27,033 nucleotides of DNA from a virus (lineage: Duplodnaviria; Caudoviricetes). Position numbers and translations under genes: made by a program. Position 1 is the stretch's first letter. Each line of letters starts with the position of its first letter. Positions 5,694 through 26,650 of this stretch are shown piece after piece. The notes below the pieces were generated by a model. It had not been told where the DNA came from. It worked only from the letters and a program-made list of their open reading frames with translations, and ran no database searches. Location: the IMG/VR virus record IMGVR_UViG_3300037045_000076, positions 1-27,033 of that record; one strand, written 5' to 3'.

Positions 5694-6827
5694 ATGAAAT
5701 TCACGATAAATCAAAAACTCTTCTGCGCCGCACTCTCCCGCGTCCAGGGCATCACCGGCAGCAGGCTCACCATGCCGATCCTGGCCAACGTGCTGCTCAG
5801 CACCTCGGCACCCCTGCCCTTACTCCACATCAGCGTCAGTGACCTGGAAGTCGGCTACACCACCGTCATCGACTGCAATGACATCGAAACACCCGGCAGC
5901 ATCACCGTGCCGGCTAAAAAAATCTATGAAGTCGTCAAAGGAGCACCCACCGGAGAAATAAGCTTCTCGCTCGATCCCGCAAACAACCGGGTCACCATCG
6001 AAGCCGGAACATTCGTAACCACCCTGGCAGGTTTGCCCGCAGACGAATTTCCCGAAGTGAACAGGGTTGACGGGGAAGATCTCGAGCTCGATGCCGCCGC
6101 CCTCCTGCGCCTGATCGGCCACGTCGACTATGCCCAGTGTGCTGCCCCGGAAAAATACAACATCTGCGGAGTATTCCTGCAGATCAAAGACGATGACGAA
6201 GGGTGCAGCCGCCTCTACGCCGCCGCCACCGACGGCCACCGCCTGGCAGCCGACAGCGTGCCCCTGCCCGGAGATCCGCGTGTCATCCCGGCCGATCTCG
6301 CCAAAGGAATCATCATCCCCCGCAAGGGCATCGCCGAACTGAAAAAAATATCGCCCGAAGGCGTGTTGATCCTGCAGATCCTTGGTAACAACCTGTCCAT
6401 CTCAACGGAAAACGAGACCTTCACCCTGCGTCTGGTCGACGGACAGTTTCCCGACATCCAGCGGATAATCCCGACAAAGATACTCGGCAGCGCCCATTTC
6501 AACCGGCAACCGCTGATCGATGCCCTCGACAGGGTGTCCCTGCTCAGTGAAGGCAAATCCCACGCGGTAACCCTCTCGTTTGACGACGGACATATCCAGC
6601 TCGATTCCCAGAATCCGGAGCTCGGAGAAGCGCATGACCGGGTTGCCGCCGCCCTCGAAGGTGAGCTGTCCTATCGCAAACTCAATGCCGCCTACCTGGT
6701 TCAGGCGCTCTCCGTCTGGGATTGCGGTGTAGTGCAGATCAACCTGGCCGGTGATCTCGACCCGATACTGGTAACGCCCTACGGCGAAACGGAGCCACTT
6801 GCCGTCATCATGCCGTTGCGAGGATAG
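5694..6827 (+). CDS. dnaN: DNA polymerase III beta sliding clamp (phage-encoded copy)
   Basis: MKFTI..MPILANVLL, SDLEVG, PGSITVPAKK, DEFP, AATDGHRLA, IIPRKG, RLVDGQFPD..RIIP, LNAAYL, C-terminal VIMPLR; 377 aa. Confidence 0.95.
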   Translation: MKFTINQKLFCAALSRVQGITGSRLTMPILANVLLSTSAPLPLLHISVSDLEVGYTTVIDCNDIETPGSITVPAKKIYEVVKGAPTGEISFSLDPANNRVTIEAGTFVTTLAGLPADEFPEVNRVDGEDLELDAAALLRLIGHVDYAQCAAPEKYNICGVFLQIKDDDEGCSRLYAAATDGHRLAADSVPLPGDPRVIPADLAKGIIIPRKGIAELKKISPEGVLILQILGNNLSISTENETFTLRLVDGQFPDIQRIIPTKILGSAHFNRQPLIDALDRVSLLSEGKSHAVTLSFDDGHIQLDSQNPELGEAHDRVAAALEGELSYRKLNAAYLVQALSVWDCGVVQINLAGDLDPILVTPYGETEPLAVIMPLRG

Positions 6828-11785: not shown

Positions 11786-11792
11786 ATTAGGT

Positions 11793-11820
11793 TTCATACT
11801 TCATCCTTCATCCTTCATAC
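11793..11820. repeat. Heptamer tandem repeat (TTCATMC)x4
   Basis: ttcatac ttcatcc ttcatcc ttcatac, immediately after terL. Confidence 0.85.
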
Positions 11821-11844
11821 TTTTTATTTTTTCCGGAGGCAGAA

Positions 11845-14269: not shown

Positions 14270-14283
14270 CACCTGCCGACCCC

Positions 14284-14316
14284 AGACCTGCCAGGTTTTC
14301 AAAACCTGGCAGGTCT
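14284..14316. repeat. Perfect 16-bp inverted repeat, REP-like palindrome
   Basis: AGACCTGCCAGGTTTT-C-AAAACCTGGCAGGTCT; each arm contains its own palindrome ACCTG-N-CAGGT. Confidence 0.85.
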
Positions 14317-16359: not shown

Positions 16360-16368
16360 TTTCAATAA

Positions 16369-16396
16369 TTCATCATTCATCCTTCATAATTCATCC
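16369..16396. repeat. Heptamer tandem repeat (TTCATMM)x4
   Basis: ttcatca ttcatcc ttcataa ttcatcc, between portal and protease. Confidence 0.85.
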
Positions 16397-16417
16397 TTAC
16401 CCCAGCCCGGAGGCAGC

Positions 16418-17704
16418 ATGAAACTCGACCGCCTGGTCCGCCTGATCAGTCAGCAATGGGCTATCGAATCGGAGGTGTTGGAAAACTGGTGTCAGATCCT
16501 CGACGCCAAGCTTTCCGGTCTCCCGCTTCCGGATCACCTCCTGGCCACCGAAGAAAGAATCGCCGCTGGCCGCTCCGGATCCAGAAGCGATGACGACCTG
16601 TTTATTCGCGACGGAAACATTGCCATCGTCCCGGTAGTCGGCACCCTGGTCAAAGCCAATACCCTCTTTTCCTGCGACGCTACCTATGGCGATTTGCGCC
16701 GGGCCGTATCGGCCGCCGAGAAAGCTAAAGGGATCGACGCCATTATTCTTGATGGCGACACTCCCGGCGGTACCGTGGCAGGCGTGCAGGAGGCCGGTGA
16801 TTTTCTCGCCAAGGTTGGCCAACGAAAACCCCTCTACGGCTGGGTGGATGACCTGGCGGCCTCGGCCGGTTATTGGCTCCTGTCTCAAACCCGCATGATC
16901 GGAGCGCACGCCGCCGCCGATATCGGCTCTATCGGAGTCCTGACCGTCCACTATGACCGATCCGGACGCGACGCGCAGAATGGCGTCAAGCGCACCGTGC
17001 TTGCCGTGGGTGATTACAAAGCAGCGGGCAACGATACCGCCCCGCTTACCACCGACGAAAGATCCTACATCATGGACCGGCTTGACCAGACCTACGGCCT
17101 CTTCATTGCCGCCGTCGGCAAGGGCCGCCCGCAACTCTCCGCCGAGATGATCCGTGAGATGCAGAGCCGCGTTTATAAATCCGCCCAGGCCCAAAAACTG
17201 GGCCTCATCGACCACGTCATGGGACGTGATGAATATATCGACTATATCAAACAACAGACCAGAGGGGCGGTCACCGTCCCGGTAAAAGGAGTAAGAGCCA
17301 TGAATATCGATGAACTCAGAGCGCAGCATCCCGACCTCGTCTCTCAGGTTGAGGCCGCCGCTCGCGAAGGAATGATCTCCCGTGCCGAGCACGACACCGC
17401 CTTGACCGTTGCCAGCACCGAAGCGACCGAGACGAGCCGCTCCTCGGTGCTTGCCCTGCACTCCGCAATTTTCGGCGAGGAGGCCGCCGCCCGCTTCTCG
17501 GCGGCAGTCGAAAGCGGCATCACCGCCGACCAGGCCAAAGCGCTTGGCATTACCGCCGAAACCGGTGACGCCGCGAGCCGCACCGCCATCCTGGACGGCA
17601 TCACCGCAGCTGCGGCGCAGGGCCTCAGACCCGGCCAGATCGTGCAGCAGCAAGTAGCCGCCATTGATACCTCGGCCATCTACGCGAATCGACAAGCAAG
17701 GTAA
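16418..17704 (+). CDS. Head maturation protease, S49 family (lambda gpC-like), with C-terminal scaffold domain
   Basis: IAIVPVVGTL, DTPGGTVAG, AASAGYWL (catalytic Ser), IGSIGV, GDYKAAG, GLIDHV. Confidence 0.92.
   Translation: MKLDRLVRLISQQWAIESEVLENWCQILDAKLSGLPLPDHLLATEERIAAGRSGSRSDDDLFIRDGNIAIVPVVGTLVKANTLFSCDATYGDLRRAVSAAEKAKGIDAIILDGDTPGGTVAGVQEAGDFLAKVGQRKPLYGWVDDLAASAGYWLLSQTRMIGAHAAADIGSIGVLTVHYDRSGRDAQNGVKRTVLAVGDYKAAGNDTAPLTTDERSYIMDRLDQTYGLFIAAVGKGRPQLSAEMIREMQSRVYKSAQAQKLGLIDHVMGRDEYIDYIKQQTRGAVTVPVKGVRAMNIDELRAQHPDLVSQVEAAAREGMISRAEHDTALTVASTEATETSRSSVLALHSAIFGEEAAARFSAAVESGITADQAKALGITAETGDAASRTAILDGITAAAAQGLRPGQIVQQQVAAIDTSAIYANRQAR
17300..17704 (+). CDS. Nested in-frame scaffolding protein (Nu3-like)
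   Basis: Internal AAAGGAG (17285-17291) precedes in-frame ATG17300; the product MNIDELRAQHPDLV... is Ala-rich and helical. Confidence 0.7.
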   Translation: MNIDELRAQHPDLVSQVEAAAREGMISRAEHDTALTVASTEATETSRSSVLALHSAIFGEEAAARFSAAVESGITADQAKALGITAETGDAASRTAILDGITAAAAQGLRPGQIVQQQVAAIDTSAIYANRQAR

Positions 17705-17709
17705 ACAAA

Positions 17710-17770
17710 GGATGAAGGATGAAGGGTGAAGTTTTTTCATAATTCATACTTCAAAATTCATAATTCCAAA
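17710..17770. repeat. Opposed heptamer arrays (GGATGAA)n / (TTCAWAM)n
   Basis: ggatgaa ggatgaa gggtgaa gtttt ttcataa ttcatac ttcaaaa ttcataa ttccaaa. Confidence 0.85.
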
Positions 17771-17787
17771 AAAAAGGAGTACCGAAC

Positions 17788-18435
17788 ATGTCCCCAGTAA
17801 TCAGCGAAGGCCGCTATCGCGGCGAATTTCTCTACAGCGAAGCGTGCGGAACCCGCTCGCTGGAGACTGTCATCATCGATACAGGCGATTTAGCCGCGGG
17901 TACCGTACTCGGCCAGATCACCAAAGGGGCCGCAACCGGAGCGGCCGTGGTCGGCGGTACCGGCAACGGTACCATTACCGCCGCCCCGGCCGTGGCAGCT
18001 GGCGCTAAAGCAGGCGTTTACCGCGCTGTCTGCATCGAACCGGCGTCAAACGCCGGTAAGTTCCTGGTCACCGACCCTGACGGCATCAACCTCGGCGTGG
18101 CCACCGTGGCAGTCGAGTTTGTCGGCGGCGGACTCACGTTCACTATTGCCGACGGCAGCACCGACTTCGCTTCCGGCGATTCCTTCACGGTCACCGTGGC
18201 CGCAGGTTCCCTGAAATACGTTGCCTACGACCAAGACGGTGTAAACGGCACCGAGATCGCCGCCGGTATCCTCCTCGACAACGTCGACGCCACCTCAGCC
18301 GACGTGGAGGCCGTCATCGTAGCCCGTGACGCCGAAGTAAACGGCAGCGAAATCACCTGGCCGGCGGACATCGAAGCCGGAGAGAAAACCGTCGCCATCG
18401 CGCAGCTCGCTACTCTCGGCATCATCGTCAGGTAA
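17788..18435 (+). CDS. Head decoration protein (lambda gpD-like) with inserted beta-rich domain
   Basis: FLYSEA..RS.E, LAAGTVLGQIT, and after the insert YVAYD..G.EIAAGIL..VARDAEVN..LATLGIIVR; located between protease and capsid genes. Confidence 0.85.
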   Translation: MSPVISEGRYRGEFLYSEACGTRSLETVIIDTGDLAAGTVLGQITKGAATGAAVVGGTGNGTITAAPAVAAGAKAGVYRAVCIEPASNAGKFLVTDPDGINLGVATVAVEFVGGGLTFTIADGSTDFASGDSFTVTVAAGSLKYVAYDQDGVNGTEIAAGILLDNVDATSADVEAVIVARDAEVNGSEITWPADIEAGEKTVAIAQLATLGIIVR

Positions 18436-18441
18436 AACAAA

Positions 18442-18508
18442 GGATGAGTTATGAAGGATGAAGGATGAAGTAAAAAACCTTTCATAATTCATAATTCAAA
18501 ATTCATAC
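18442..18508. repeat. Opposed heptamer arrays (GGATGAA)n / (TTCAWAM)n
   Basis: ggatgag ttatgaa ggatgaa ggatgaa, an 11-nt spacer, then ttcataa ttcataa ttcaaaa ttcatac. Confidence 0.85.
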
Positions 18509-18531
18509 TTTAAGAAAGAGGAGAAAGACAA

Positions 18532-22278: not shown

Positions 22279-22607
22279 ACAACACGGAAGGCGGTTCAAT
22301 GTTCAAGGTTCAAAGTTCAAGGTTGAAAGGTATTTTCAACTCAAAACTCAAAACTCAAAACTCAAAACTGCTTTTAGTGTTTTTAGTGGTTTTTCTCGCC
22401 GCCTGCACCGCTCCAGTCGAGACACTGATCCCGACTGCTATCCCCTGCCCGCAGCCGCCAGCTCTGATCCGCCCGCACCTGGCCCTCCAGGATCTTCAGC
22501 CCGTGGCAGCGCCTTCCGAGGTGCTCCGGGCCTACGTCATCACCGTCGAGCAGCTCACGGGTTACGCCTGCGAGCTGGAAACAATTATCAATGGGTACAG
22601 GAGATAG
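22275..22607 (+). CDS. o-spanin (Rz1-like lipoprotein)
   Basis: Lipobox LLLVFLVVFLAA|C, Pro-rich mature part (IPCPQPP), C-terminal helix LTGYACELETII. Confidence 0.75.
   Translation: MNNTEGGSMFKVQSSRLKGIFNSKLKTQNSKLLLVFLVVFLAACTAPVETLIPTAIPCPQPPALIRPHLALQDLQPVAAPSEVLRAYVITVEQLTGYACELETIINGYRR
22295..22370. repeat. Heptamer arrays (TTCAARG)n and (AACTCAA)x4 inside the o-spanin 5' end
   Basis: ttcaatg ttcaagg ttcaaag ttcaagg ttgaaag, then four perfect AACTCAA copies at 22338-22365. Confidence 0.85.
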
Positions 22608-22610
22608 ACG

Positions 22611-22970
22611 ATGCAAAAACTAATCGAGGGTTATACCCGCCACTCATACTCCGGCATTATCGAAGTGGCATCAAGTATCACGCCGCTGGCAGCCGCCGCC
22701 GTTGATGTAGGCGAGTTTATCAATTGTTCCCAGTTCTCCCGCCTGCACGGCACCGTCTTCGCCGATCAGGGCGGCACCCTCAACATCCACTTCAGCGGCG
22801 ACGGGGTCAACATCGACTACACCCGGACCATCTCTGTCGGGGCCTCGGACAAGGTCAACTCAGCCTGGGACCAACTGGTGATTGCTCCCTATGTCAAGTT
22901 CGAATACATCAACGGCTCCACAATCCAGGGTGCGTACCGCTTCTACGCCTTTGGCCGGTCCATGAGCTAA
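22611..22970 (+). CDS. Small beta-rich putative virion protein
   Basis: AGGAG SD; alternating beta pattern ADQGGTLNIHFSGDG.N.D..YVKFEYING; immediately upstream of the DGR target. Confidence 0.65.
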   Translation: MQKLIEGYTRHSYSGIIEVASSITPLAAAAVDVGEFINCSQFSRLHGTVFADQGGTLNIHFSGDGVNIDYTRTISVGASDKVNSAWDQLVIAPYVKFEYINGSTIQGAYRFYAFGRSMS

Positions 22971-22980
22971 GGGGAAAGAG

Positions 22981-24582
22981 ATGCCAATACAAAGCGATGG
23001 AAAAATCAAATCAGACCCGACCGGCCTTTTGCTCGGCTCCTCCAGTGCCCTCTCTCCCGCGGTCAACTCTATCGGCTCCCCGGGCAGCGCCGGCTTCGGC
23101 GTCGGGATCGCCCCGGAGACCGCCCTGCCTCCGGGTATGGTCCCCCTGTATGGGTACACCGAACCGACCCACTTCAATTTCGGCAACTACCAGTACAAAG
23201 ACGGCTCCGTCATGTGCTGGGTACCGAAATACTACTACAAGATCGGCACCGGAGCCAACGGGCTGCCGGCCAACCGGGTCGACATTGCCGGCGTCCAGAC
23301 CTTCGCCACTACCGCCCTGGCCAACAATGCCGGCTACGCATTGCACCGGGCCTTTATCGATGGCGGGGCGGAAAAAGACGGCTTCTTTGTCGACAAATAC
23401 ATTGTCAGCAAAAACGCCTGGGGTACCGGTTATATTGCCAGTTCTATCAAAAACGGCCTGCCGCTTTCCACCAACAGTGCCCACAACCCGATCGGAGACC
23501 TGACCGCCGTCAGCGGGGCCAACTATTATTACTCGGCCCTCACCGCTGCAAGGGCCCGGAGCGGACTCAACGGCGCCGTCGACGCCAACTCACCCTTTTT
23601 CTGTACGAGCCGCTTCATCTATGCTGCCCTGGCGCTGCTGTCCATGGCCCACGGCCAGGCCTCAGCCAATGGTCAGTTTTGCGGCTGGTTCGACGCGACG
23701 AAGAATTTTCCGAAAGGGTGTAACAATAACGCCCTGGCGGATGAATCCGACGCCACCGTCACCTATCAATCGGACGGCTACTCCAACTGTGCCAAAACGG
23801 GCAGCGGTAACCCTTTTGCCAAAACAACCCACAACGGCCAGGCCTGTGGTGTCGCTGACCTTAATGGCCTGATGTGGGAGATCAGCGCCGGGCTTACCTG
23901 TATCGCCGCAAGTAAAACAATTACTGGTGCATCAAAAGCCAATCCCTGTGTGATAACCATTGTCGGACATGGCTACACAACCGGCCAGGTTGCAATGATC
24001 ACCAGCGTCGGCGGCATGACGCAACTCAACGACAAAATCTACACACTCACGTCGATCAACGCGGACACCTTCTCGCTGAACGGTGTCGACTCTTCCGCTT
24101 ACACTGATTTCACCACGGGTGGATCCGTGACCGTCGGCACATTCTACGCCGCTAAATCGGCGACAAAGATGCGCGACTTCACCTCCGGCAACTCAGCCGC
24201 CACCGATCACTGGGGGGCAACCGGCGTAGCCGCCATGATGGATGCCTTCGCCATGCCGCTCCTGGCAGCGTCCGGCGGAACAGCGATTGCACAGCGGTTT
24301 GGGAATGCTGCTAACCAGGTCCTCTCCGAGGCAACCTCCGGCGCCGGATGGCTTCTTGCTGGTCTCGGCATCCAGAAAGACAGTGCCGGAATTTCTTCAG
24401 CAGGAACCAACCTTTTTGGCACCGACTATTTTTATGAGTATATCAGGAATGAGCTATGCGTCATCTCCGGTGGGATCTGGAACGACGGTTCGTCTGCCGG
24501 CGTGTGGTGCCTGGCTGTGAGCTCCGCTCGGACGAACTCGGGCAGCTCTGTGGGGTTCCGGTGTGCCTGCTACCCTGCTTAA
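22981..24582 (+). CDS. DGR target protein (CLec/FGE-sulfatase-like fold; probable receptor-binding fibre)
   Basis: LHRAF..GFFVDKY, GVADLNGLMWE (cf. FGE GLYDMxGNVWE), C-terminal SGG.W.....GVW......R......VGFRCA encoded by the VR. Confidence 0.9.
   Translation: MPIQSDGKIKSDPTGLLLGSSSALSPAVNSIGSPGSAGFGVGIAPETALPPGMVPLYGYTEPTHFNFGNYQYKDGSVMCWVPKYYYKIGTGANGLPANRVDIAGVQTFATTALANNAGYALHRAFIDGGAEKDGFFVDKYIVSKNAWGTGYIASSIKNGLPLSTNSAHNPIGDLTAVSGANYYYSALTAARARSGLNGAVDANSPFFCTSRFIYAALALLSMAHGQASANGQFCGWFDATKNFPKGCNNNALADESDATVTYQSDGYSNCAKTGSGNPFAKTTHNGQACGVADLNGLMWEISAGLTCIAASKTITGASKANPCVITIVGHGYTTGQVAMITSVGGMTQLNDKIYTLTSINADTFSLNGVDSSAYTDFTTGGSVTVGTFYAAKSATKMRDFTSGNSAATDHWGATGVAAMMDAFAMPLLAASGGTAIAQRFGNAANQVLSEATSGAGWLLAGLGIQKDSAGISSAGTNLFGTDYFYEYIRNELCVISGGIWNDGSSAGVWCLAVSSARTNSGSSVGFRCACYPA
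24454..24569 (+). repeat. DGR variable region (VR)
   Basis: 116-nt copy of 25029-25144 with 19 mismatches, 17 of them opposite TR adenines. Confidence 0.97.
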
Positions 24583-24599
24583 GGGAGTGATAACGACCG

Positions 24600-25004
24600 A
24601 TGACGCAGTCCAGTGGTGAAGTTCATTTAAATCGCAAGTTCATGGAGCTGATAAAACTCCTGAACATTTACCTCAACCACTTTCCAAAGCACGAGAAATT
24701 CGCGCTCAGCAACAGGATCCGGAACACCGCCTATGAAATCTACGACAATATTTCCGAGGGCCAGAAGCGATACTTGAAAAAGACCACGCTGAGCAACCTG
24801 GACATTGCCCACGAGAAGCTCAGGATGCAGATCTACCTCGCCTACGAGCTGGGGTATTTCCGATTCAAGGACGGCAAGGAAACCGACAAAACACCAGAAG
24901 AGCTCGAAGGCCACCGCTTTGGCTCCCTCAGTCTCTTGGTGGACGAGCTGGGCAGGATGATCGGCGGCTGGATTAAGAAGATGAAGGACGATAGCAGATG
25001 GTGA
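24600..25004 (+). CDS. avd: DGR accessory variability determinant (four-helix bundle)
   Basis: FPKHEKFAL..IRN, LRMQIYLAYELGY, ELGRMIGGWIK; lies between VR and TR. Confidence 0.92.
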   Translation: MTQSSGEVHLNRKFMELIKLLNIYLNHFPKHEKFALSNRIRNTAYEIYDNISEGQKRYLKKTTLSNLDIAHEKLRMQIYLAYELGYFRFKDGKETDKTPEELEGHRFGSLSLLVDELGRMIGGWIKKMKDDSRW

Positions 25005-25266
25005 AGTAGAAGAACGGGCACCACATTACTATGCGTCATCTCCGGTGGGAACTGGAACAACGGTTCGAATGCCGGCGTGTGGTACCTGAATTTGAACAAC
25101 TATCGGACGAACTCGAACAACAATGTGGGGTTCCGGTGTGACTGTCTCTCTGGCCTCAAAACGCGCAGGCGTATAGTGGAGATACAGGGGTGTGGTGTCC
25201 GGCGTTACGCGAAATCAACCAGCCGGACTTTTTAGTAGGACAATCCGAACATCAGGATGGCACTTT
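25005..25266 (+). ncRNA. Putative DGR template RNA (5' flank + TR + spacer)
   Basis: The avd-RT intergenic region; 25015-25026 can pair with 25190-25201, and further stems lie in the spacer. Boundaries are inferred. Confidence 0.6.
25029..25144 (+). repeat. DGR template region (TR)
   Basis: Non-coding copy with 11 AAY triplets in the VR frame and 28 adenines in total. Confidence 0.97.
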
Positions 25267-26313
25267 TTGAAACGACACGGCAATCTTTTCAACGAAATAT
25301 TTACCCGGGAAAACCTGCACCAGGCCTTCCTCGATGCCCGCAAGGGCAAACGGAAGAAGCGTGCCTGCTTCGATTTCGAGACAGCACTCGGCCGCAACCT
25401 GGAGATGCTCTACCAGGAGATCCACTCAGGCACCTACCGCCCGCGTCCGTATTATACCTTCAAGGTCTACGAGCCCAAGGAACGCATCATCCACGCCCCG
25501 GCGTTCCGCGATATCGTCGTGCAGCACGCGATCTATCGGATCATCTATCCGCTCTTTAACAAGACATTCATCGATCAATCCTTCGCCTGCCGGAACGGCA
25601 TGGGCACTCACCGGGCCAGCGACTACACTCAGCGAGCTCTGCGCAAATGCGATCCCGACAGCTACACGCTGAAACTGGATATCCGGAAATTCTTCCACAG
25701 TATCGACCGATCCATCCTGAACTGGCTGCTCGAACGAAAGATTAAAGACCAGCGACTGGTTGACCTGATGATGCTCTACGCCGAATGCGACGGACCGGCC
25801 GGGATCCCGATCGGCAACCTCCTCAGCCAACTATATGCCCTGGTCTACCTCAACCCTCTGGACCATTACGTCAAGCGGATCCTCGGGGTGAAAAACTACG
25901 TCCGCTATGTCGATGATTTCATCCTGTTCGGCCTGACCCGCGAGCAGTGCCTCGAATACCGGGAGCGGATCATCATTTACCTGGATAAAGCGCTCCGCCT
26001 GACACTCTCGAAATCCACCATCCAAAAGGTACGCCGTGGCGTCAATTTCGTCGGCTACCGCACCTGGCGACACAAGCGCTTTATCCGAAAGTTCAGCCTG
26101 TACCGATTCAAGAAAGCGCTGCGCACCGGCAACGCCAGATCAATAGCCTCGATCCTTGGACACGCCTGTCGCACCAACTCACTGCCGCACATGCTGCGGC
26201 TCATCAAGGAGAGCAGCAATGGCCAAAATATACCGCTTCCAAAAAGCCTCGGACGAATACACCAGCTACGGCCCGCAAGGCGAAGGGATCACCGAGCTCT
26301 GCACGCTGCCTGA
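25267..26313 (+). CDS. DGR reverse transcriptase
   Basis: (M)KRHGNLF, PKERII.AP.FRD.VVQHA, LKLDIRKFF.SI, GIPIGNLLSQ (DGR-type SQ motif), YVRYVDDF, VNFVGY. TTG25267 has an AGGA SD; no maturase or endonuclease domain. Confidence 0.95.
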   Translation: MKRHGNLFNEIFTRENLHQAFLDARKGKRKKRACFDFETALGRNLEMLYQEIHSGTYRPRPYYTFKVYEPKERIIHAPAFRDIVVQHAIYRIIYPLFNKTFIDQSFACRNGMGTHRASDYTQRALRKCDPDSYTLKLDIRKFFHSIDRSILNWLLERKIKDQRLVDLMMLYAECDGPAGIPIGNLLSQLYALVYLNPLDHYVKRILGVKNYVRYVDDFILFGLTREQCLEYRERIIIYLDKALRLTLSKSTIQKVRRGVNFVGYRTWRHKRFIRKFSLYRFKKALRTGNARSIASILGHACRTNSLPHMLRLIKESSNGQNIPLPKSLGRIHQLRPARRRDHRALHAA

Positions 26314-26650
26314 TGGGTTCACGTATGTTTCGGTACCGGATGATGGGAAATTGTCCGACGAGCAGCCGAAGCAGATCCAGATCGAGGAGCCGATCCTCAC
26401 TGACGAGCTGAAAGAGCAGATCAAGGCAACGAGCCCACACTGCCAGCTGATCTATACCAGGATGCAGGAGAAGATCCGCGAGAAGTATTGCTCAGAAGAC
26501 GAGATGTACATGACCCGGATCAGCGTCGGGCAACTCGCCGGCATGTATCAGATGCAGCCGGGCGAGCCGGAGCTGATAGTGGCATACCAAACCTTCATCG
26601 AGGGGATCAGGCAATGGGGAAAGTCAGAGCGGGCAAAATTCGGACTGTAA
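26219..26650 (+). CDS. Hypothetical protein, possible tail-fibre assembly chaperone
   Basis: AAGGAG SD precedes ATG26219; IREKYCSEDE..YQTFIEGIR..K pattern; overlaps the RT 3' end by 95 nt. Confidence 0.65.
   Translation: MAKIYRFQKASDEYTSYGPQGEGITELCTLPDGFTYVSVPDDGKLSDEQPKQIQIEEPILTDELKEQIKATSPHCQLIYTRMQEKIREKYCSEDEMYMTRISVGQLAGMYQMQPGEPELIVAYQTFIEGIRQWGKSERAKFGL

Follow-up and report, generated by a model that had tools for sequence, protein, structure and literature searches.

Is the group of genes and repeats near the end of an incomplete phage genome a working device for targeted mutation and, if so, which protein does it vary? The question is raised by positions 22981–26313 of IMG/VR record IMGVR_UViG_3300037045_000076 (Duplodnaviria; Caudoviricetes), a linear viral record of 27,033 nt, estimated to be 56% complete, which was analysed over its whole length and is referred to here as the window. 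A preliminary description, made from the letters alone, had recognised a complete diversity-generating retroelement (DGR) of the type of Bordetella phage BPP-1, with adenine-specific mutagenesis, and had supposed that it diversifies a receptor-binding protein. The element is an ordinary phage DGR of a well-catalogued kind of which thousands are known, and our analysis leads with good confidence to an intact BPP-1-type DGR in a phage with a lambda-like head; by mutagenic retrohoming it likely varies a predicted host-binding protein of the C-type lectin (CLec) fold at its exposed C-terminal tip. The parts, their order, the bias of the repeat differences toward adenine, the identity of the reverse transcriptase (RT) and six lineage-private bases common to both repeats are observed; the mode of action is reasoned from BPP-1. 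The features of the cassette and the gene that follows it all lie on the + strand. Published work is cited by DOI or PubMed Central number and from excerpts of each text.

The Repeat Pair and Its Record of Adenine Changes

The repeat pair first described was recovered exactly. The variable repeat (VR, 24454–24569), which occupies target codons 492–530, and the template repeat (TR, 25029–25144) are 116 nt each at an offset of 575, and differ at 19 of 116 nt, 17 of them at TR adenines, in a TR that contains 28 A among 116 nt (hypergeometric p 2.9e-11). The codon changes quoted at the outset are all present (24475 AAC>ATC, 24493 AAT>TCT, 24541 AAC>GGC and 24514 AAT>GCT). The last bases of the VR are likely the initiation of mutagenic homing site (IMH), with its counterpart IMH* at the 3' end of the TR.

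Related loci (L001–L199), taken together with the window, gave a TR-like match in 165 cases and a TR/VR pair in 132, 120 of which are distinct. One of the window's adenine differences, the A>C at 24566 (TR position 113, A at 25141), recurs as TR A/VR C in 64 of 83 TR clusters, with divergence beyond it; this column is therefore read as the fixed IMH/IMH* difference and not as mutagenesis. The first copied base in BPP-1 is G117 (PMC6182149), and in a register carried over from that base TR position 113 would fall 3' of the start of copying. When this site is set aside, 16 of 18 differences are at TR A and the other two are T>G (24517 and 24526). The term "adenine-specific" is thus borne out by 16 changes and slightly overstated, there being two T>G and one of the 17 adenine differences belonging to the IMH. 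In a related locus (L084) two VR-like copies occur, at 2131 and 2714, and the copy at the TR position is partly mutagenised; this is either a chimeric assembly or an overwritten TR.

The TR holds 11 in-frame AAY codons, each of which reaches 15 residues with no stop under A-only change. The resulting 15^11 = 8.65e12 variants, which agree with the figure of about 9x10^12 given beforehand, are an upper bound that rises to 2.2e15 when four single-A codons are added. In an alignment of 89 targets the mean is 3.16 bits at the 11 AAY sites vs 1.14 elsewhere, and 978 of the 979 residues found at them are within the AAY-reachable set of 15.

The Reverse Transcriptase, Avd and the Predicted Spacer RNA

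The RT gene (25267–26313; 348 aa) has no ATG and begins with TTG at 25267, a start also called in the protein collection and occupied in relatives by ATG or TTG. DGR RTs are recognised by the motifs [I/V/L]GxxxSQ and YxDD (10.1101/2020.04.29.068544), and the window RT carries IGNLLSQ (25810–25830) and YVDD (25906–25917). Its best solved relative is bRT, the BPP-1 enzyme (E 6.5e-50; the next RT has 1.2e-18). Two bRT residues that favour mutation at adenines, R74 and I181 (10.1101/2020.04.29.068544), correspond to R73 and I182 here, so that the fidelity residues are retained, and YVDD corresponds to YMDD.

It is extremely improbable that the enzyme belongs to a group II intron or a retron and merely adjoins a chance repeat. 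The best NCBIfam match by score is a group II RT, at 112 bits, but the cut-off of that model is 300, and the retron St85 model reaches 42 bits against a cut-off of 235; the active-site motif is of the SQ kind, not QGGxxSP, no Rfam match occurs within the window, and the adenine bias (p 3e-11 in round figures) speaks against a chance repeat. Both identities were rejected. An RT phylogeny, suggested earlier as the check on group II or retron grouping, places the enzyme with DGR RTs and apart from group II: in a quick IQ-TREE maximum-likelihood tree six group II RTs split from the 44 others with an SH-aLRT of 100, the side without them including the window, BPP-1, VHML and ANMV-1, and the window falling in a 28-row clade that also holds phage Bise. 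Two points weigh against the assignments made here: the tree came from a quick search, with long branches flagged and rows that include no retron, and the avd product scores 70 bits against NCBIfam NF033474, under the cut-off of 80.

The avd accessory gene (24600–25004; 134 aa) matches Pfam bAvd with 56.1 bits (cut-off 40) and PHROG 3206 with E 2.4e-22; its frame is open and both RT motifs were located, as had been claimed. Between TR and RT lies a spacer (25145–25266), the predicted structured DGR RNA, which is predicted to pair back on the 3' end of the TR. The nearest relative of the window is L001, a locus of the provirus G001 (95% complete) whose RT is 95% identical to that of the window; the spacer is 98.4% identical between the two, and the RT gene 91.9%. 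The consensus fold of the spacer shows compensatory change at 15 of 28 pairs in 24 chosen sequences, a count made without a shuffle control.

Comparison with Known Retroelements

The likeness to the BPP-1 DGR (mtd-avd-TR-brt; NC_005357.1; bRT PDB 8UB7) embraces the gene order, the single C-terminal VR, the AAY-rich TR, Avd, the RT motifs and R74/I181 equivalents, the IMH/IMH* difference, a GRNA-loop element after the VR and a predicted structured spacer. The target-avd-TR-RT order with all core parts present upholds the BPP-1 type architecture, which corresponds to the avd-TR-RT arrangement that Wu et al. call architecture B (PMC5758913). The window differs from BPP-1 in an RT that is only about 36% identical, a TaqVP-like target with an FCCH-like insert instead of Mtd, a tandem GA/GA with four Watson-Crick pairs in place of a perfect 8-bp stem, a TTG start, a lambda-like head and a 143-aa downstream gene unmatched to bbp4.

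By analogy with BPP-1, the avd-TR-spacer RNA would fold and act as primer for its own copying by RT-Avd, which would begin near nucleotide 25138, within the TR; the RT would misread adenines often and uracils rarely, the latter probably explaining the two T>G; and the cDNA would replace the VR, guided by the IMH and a hairpin with a GATA loop.

The nearest named phage RT is that of Pseudomonas phage Bise (OR683401.1; 59% identical, same RT clade), which shares the target-avd-TR-RT order and has nine A-only TR/VR differences, but has a baseplate-type tail context and a shorter target (364 aa), and its annotation names no more than hypothetical and RT genes. A Helicobacter prophage (BK070120.1; L209:3518-7124) contains an unannotated DGR of the window's clade with 10 A-only TR/VR differences.

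The Probable Target of Diversification

The target gene (22981–24582; 533 aa) encodes a predicted TaqVP-like CLec-fold protein with an inserted FCCH-like beta domain (about residues 305–392) and the VR at the C-terminus. At least 2655 homologues exist, 120 of them listed and 89 used for the model, which has a mean predicted local distance difference test (pLDDT) of 85 with low values at 1–23 and 246–283. Its top fold match is TaqVP, from a Thermus aquaticus prophage DGR (PDB 5VF4; Z 25.9, root-mean-square deviation 3.2, 294 residues aligned over 54–532, about 21% identity), from which it differs in being about 150 aa longer and in the inserted domain; Mtd (1yu3) gives Z 10.1 and TvpA (2y3c) Z 9.8. 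Residues 305–392 match the FCCH fold of E1 (Z 15.1) as well as phage tail-tube and neck or head-to-tail proteins; a ubiquitin E1 function was rejected, the match being limited to the FCCH-like fold. Viral fold matches of the whole target include tail and collar fibre proteins, and PF18454, which we take to be Mtd_N, is found on 9 of the 120 listed homologues.

Among 107 loci (RT of at least 50% identity with 2.6 kb upstream, duplicates kept) avd occurs in 104 and a TaqVP-like target in 96, of which 39 have the FCCH insert. One homologue (P0002) apparently has two FCCH-like inserts, from which the domain is taken to be mobile, and Campylobacter phages such as CP220 have target homologues across residues 35–304. 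No report joining a DGR with FCCH was found in the open-access literature. No second target was detected, there being no further TR match in G000 and in G001 a single 24-nt match, to the TR end and spacer.

The predicted fold, the gene context and published patterns suggest receptor binding and a virion location, and a CLec fold like that of TaqVP and Mtd fits such a role. The protein would likely sit on the virion and bind the receptor in an accessory capacity, since a gpJ-like central fibre is encoded separately in the closest complete relative, G001. The genes of the window run from primase, DnaN clamp, gpA-type terminase and lambda-type portal through protease, decoration and capsid proteins to holin, endolysin, spanin and the DGR; in G001 the same cassette has the lysis genes on one side and on the other a lambda-like tail, which includes tape measure and central fibre J. 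The placement of the target gene, after the lysis genes and outside a tail module, and the low confidence of its N-terminal 25 residues weigh against virion attachment. An active DGR whose target instead acts in the lysogen, or is a head or collar adhesin for surfaces, would account for the gene's position, for the presence of a separate J in G001 and for the resemblance of the FCCH-like domain to tail-tube and head-to-tail proteins. We consider it decidedly unlikely, since TaqVP and Mtd are the folds nearest to it, most viral DGR targets are tail proteins (PMC8144416), and the cassette of L003, 75% identical in DNA, sits a few genes past baseplate and tail-fibre genes. The differing contexts in L001 and L003 also indicate that the cassette moves between unlike phages.

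Changes at Template Thymines

The two T>G of the window were set against the related TR/VR pairs, counted as one pair per 90% cluster (81 clusters, with L001 representing the window) at TR positions 16–111. Left out were BPP-1, four loci with at least four non-A differences each (L003, L057, L068, L074) and the T>G at TR position 11 (CTA>CGN), a possible 5' boundary effect. Changed bases amounted to 1181 of 2060 A, 18 of 1587 T and 11 of 4129 C or G (Fisher p 1.9e-4), and 14 of the 18 T changes are to G, four to C and none to A. With 80% clustering (50 clusters) T is changed at 10 of 1038 positions, always to G (p 0.02, or 0.058 on positions 19–96), and of 335 third positions of AAT six became G and none A. 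T changes are commoner after a mutated +1 base (5/85 vs 13/1502, p 0.002), a pattern that one of the window's two T>G fits. That the TR had drifted from A to T was rejected as an explanation: it predicts T>A mismatches, of which 0 of 18 were seen. The near-zero T>G count in distant DGR clades is uninformative, since non-A changes were penalised by the finder used there.

Uracil errors of bRT with a snowball effect have been published (10.1101/2025.03.24.644984), whereas in vitro they are near baseline (10.1101/2020.04.29.068544). By analogy with that enzyme, a uracil leak of the RT is the likely origin of the two T>G. The pairs resemble the DGRec results of the former paper in that T ranks second among the changed bases and its changes follow a prior mutation; they differ in being natural, in coming from another RT clade and in their T>G direction, the excerpt of the DGRec text giving none. 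Selection on the VR may also be a source of the T>G bias.

That the two changes are ordinary drift, or that the VR came from another TR or by recombination with a sister phage, is unlikely. Recombination does occur in the target gene (the sister protein P0122 is identical through residue 270 and then shows 61 differing sites and another VR, which is read as recombination within the gene), and non-A changes are present in 23–34% of DGRs with an undecided cause (PMC5758913, PMC6642488), T preferring C across 948 DGRs (PMC6642488). However, both thymines are conserved in the L001 TR, T>G makes up 14 of 29 non-A TR/VR changes vs 4/85, 4/99 and 2/42 (4–5%) for the G/T type among ordinary differences, and the enrichment after a mutated +1 base is the one reported for bRT. 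In the open-access literature no report of T-to-G change in DGRs was found; this natural signature would extend the recently reported uracil leak.

The Predicted Hairpin Behind the Variable Repeat

A target hairpin, GG-GA-GT-[GATA]-AC-GA-CC, is predicted at 24583–24598 with its loop at 24589–24592 and, judging from its sequence, likely uses G·A mismatches, the stem being two Watson-Crick pairs, a tandem GA/GA and two more Watson-Crick pairs. GRNA-loop hairpins with a GC-rich stem of 7–10 bp are common and not universal (34% of DGRs). Published phage DGR stems are perfect over 7–10 bp, and hairpin vs cruciform is left undecided (PMC3240598).

The unusual stem recurs in the family. A two-pair stem closing a GRNA loop follows the VR in 81 of 83 clusters (the loop is GATA in 57), and the next two stem positions of those 81 are GA/GA in 45, Watson-Crick in 30 and other in 6. 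The 5' GA is paired with a 3' GA in 45 of 45 clusters, and the TR-side control gave 0 GA/GA. On a FastTree of 74 RTs, with L116 and eight unlabelled clusters excluded, 11 changes between GA/GA and Watson-Crick are counted, at least eight of them forced by strong branches. In DNA, the sheared pairing of a tandem 5'-GA/GA is stable. On the opposite strand TC/TC mismatches would arise, and the hairpin would thus form on the coding strand only, as the repeated switching also suggests. A stem workable on the coding strand only fits a recent model in which the cDNA anneals to its exposed complement (PMC12875486).

Several points tell against this. The window stem has only four Watson-Crick pairs, it overlaps the likely ribosome site of avd, and DNA folding favours an overlapping hairpin at 24573–24585 over the one with the GATA loop; in the family the stem extends by two or more further pairs in only 22 of 45 GA/GA clusters, and the 5' GA is within TGA in about 20 of 47 motif matches and could in some be a stop codon. 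The joint proposal that the clade has a coding-strand-only target hairpin, with tandem sheared G·A pairs, and an RT with a directional U>G leak is accordingly a tentative one, quite possible but held at somewhat less than even confidence. If true, it would provide natural evidence for a single-strand hairpin over a cruciform, the point left open for BPP-1, and the leak would give AAT access to NNG codons, those for Glu and Gln for instance, which lie outside the 15-residue repertoire. The GA/GA variant could serve to separate hairpin from cruciform recognition, and screens for perfect inverted repeats would miss it. No report of a G-A mismatch in a DGR hairpin was found in the open-access literature.

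Probable Past Transfer and Possible Present Activity

The TRs of the window and L001 differ at six sites; the window VR agrees with its own TR at 6 of 6 and the L001 VR with its own at 5 of 6, the sixth being A>G. Since each VR tracks its own TR at bases private to the lineage, this supports, from the aligned repeats, TR-to-VR transfer in both lineages after their split.

Half or more of the window's words are present in 15 of the 24 listed sequencing runs; eight of the 15 are flagged as a possible source, and the other seven bear the label coal or groundwater metagenome and possibly stem from one campaign. No RNA run is among those listed. The VR was compared in eight of the 24, as assembled contigs, which hide minority variants. 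The check for VR polymorphism that had been proposed was thus made on contigs only and, among the aligned pieces listed, gave no VR variant in seven covering runs (four of them possible sources), the VR being identical; the result bears on current activity and not on the identity of the DGR. The eighth run (X9) has no cover at 24440–24547, between contigs of depth 28 and depth 3, and is not counted as evidence. Ten contigs carry the exact target protein, and scans with degenerate VR/TR patterns returned only L210, with the same VR as the window, and L211, on the same contig as L001.

This uniformity weighs against present diversification and would be explained by a real but dormant or near-silent DGR, in which a short hairpin or lack of expression makes retrohoming negligible and freezes the VR. 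The loss of avd-TR-RT by deletion in relatives (10/37 loci) and a stem shorter than the BPP-1 optimum (PMC3240598) would agree with dormancy. It is somewhat unlikely, for all frames are open, the catalytic and fidelity residues are kept, the spacer is 98% conserved, minority variants would escape contigs, and the same hairpin type is shared by 45 of 81 clusters, in which VR and TR are seen to differ at adenines. The VR now found looks like an allele that has been selected and dominates the population.

A Small Gene That Accompanies the Target

A 143-aa gene of no known family (26219–26650) overlaps the RT end by 95 nt. Of 118 loci whose downstream DNA is long enough, 83 have it after the RT, and it comes directly after the target in 10 of 37 target-fetched loci that have no full DGR, three of which keep avd or RT remnants. 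In L081 (7515–7675), L087 (7524–7643) and L104 (7536–7858) such remnants lie between the target and the 143-aa gene, with the hairpin kept. The gene order, in which the 143-aa gene stays with the target in loci that have lost the DGR, makes its product likely a partner (chaperone or adaptor) of the target and not DGR machinery. From the family comparison, a large family of DGR targets would have this protein as its unnamed partner.

The protein folds confidently (pLDDT 97). It has no Pfam or PHROG family and no PDB sequence match, its Atlas neighbours are unnamed, the weak leads (XkdW, DUF2977, Caudo_TAP) all fall under 0.9, and no profile match links it to the post-RT genes of cr55_1, BPP-1, BK070120 or VHML; one viral fold match, also unnamed, is below 1e-3. 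Prediction of its complex with the target scored 0.00, from which no verdict is drawn.

Genomic Setting and Other Features of the Window

Named relatives, at about 63–67% identity, include Geobacteraceae, Desulfobulbus and Desulfobacula, together with other phyla. Promoter and terminator scans of the window gave chance level only. Upstream of the target, a 119-aa open reading frame (ORF; 22611–22970) has a weak match to PBSX XepA (E 2.8e-5, far under the cut-off); it was rejected as a part of the cassette, a homologue being present in 1 of 107 loci.

Among the other genes, a gpZ-like tail completion gene (125–961) lies among early genes, away from the tail module, and a full DNA polymerase III beta clamp is phage-encoded at 5694–6827, G001 having one too. 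The head decoration protein (17788–18435) has 215 aa vs the 116 positions of its model, which indicates that it carries an insertion.

Between genes, runs of a 7-nt repeat occur at 11792–11829, 16366–16405, 17703–17772, 18435–18517 and 22300–22369, with a purine-rich arm followed by a pyrimidine-rich one; they lie upstream of head genes and within the start of an Rz1-like ORF, and are in part inverted copies of one another. Upstream of the portal gene is a near-perfect palindrome of 34 nt (14283–14316), possibly an operator, a terminator or a small mobile repeat, copies of which are found between genes at three places in G001 and also in L002.

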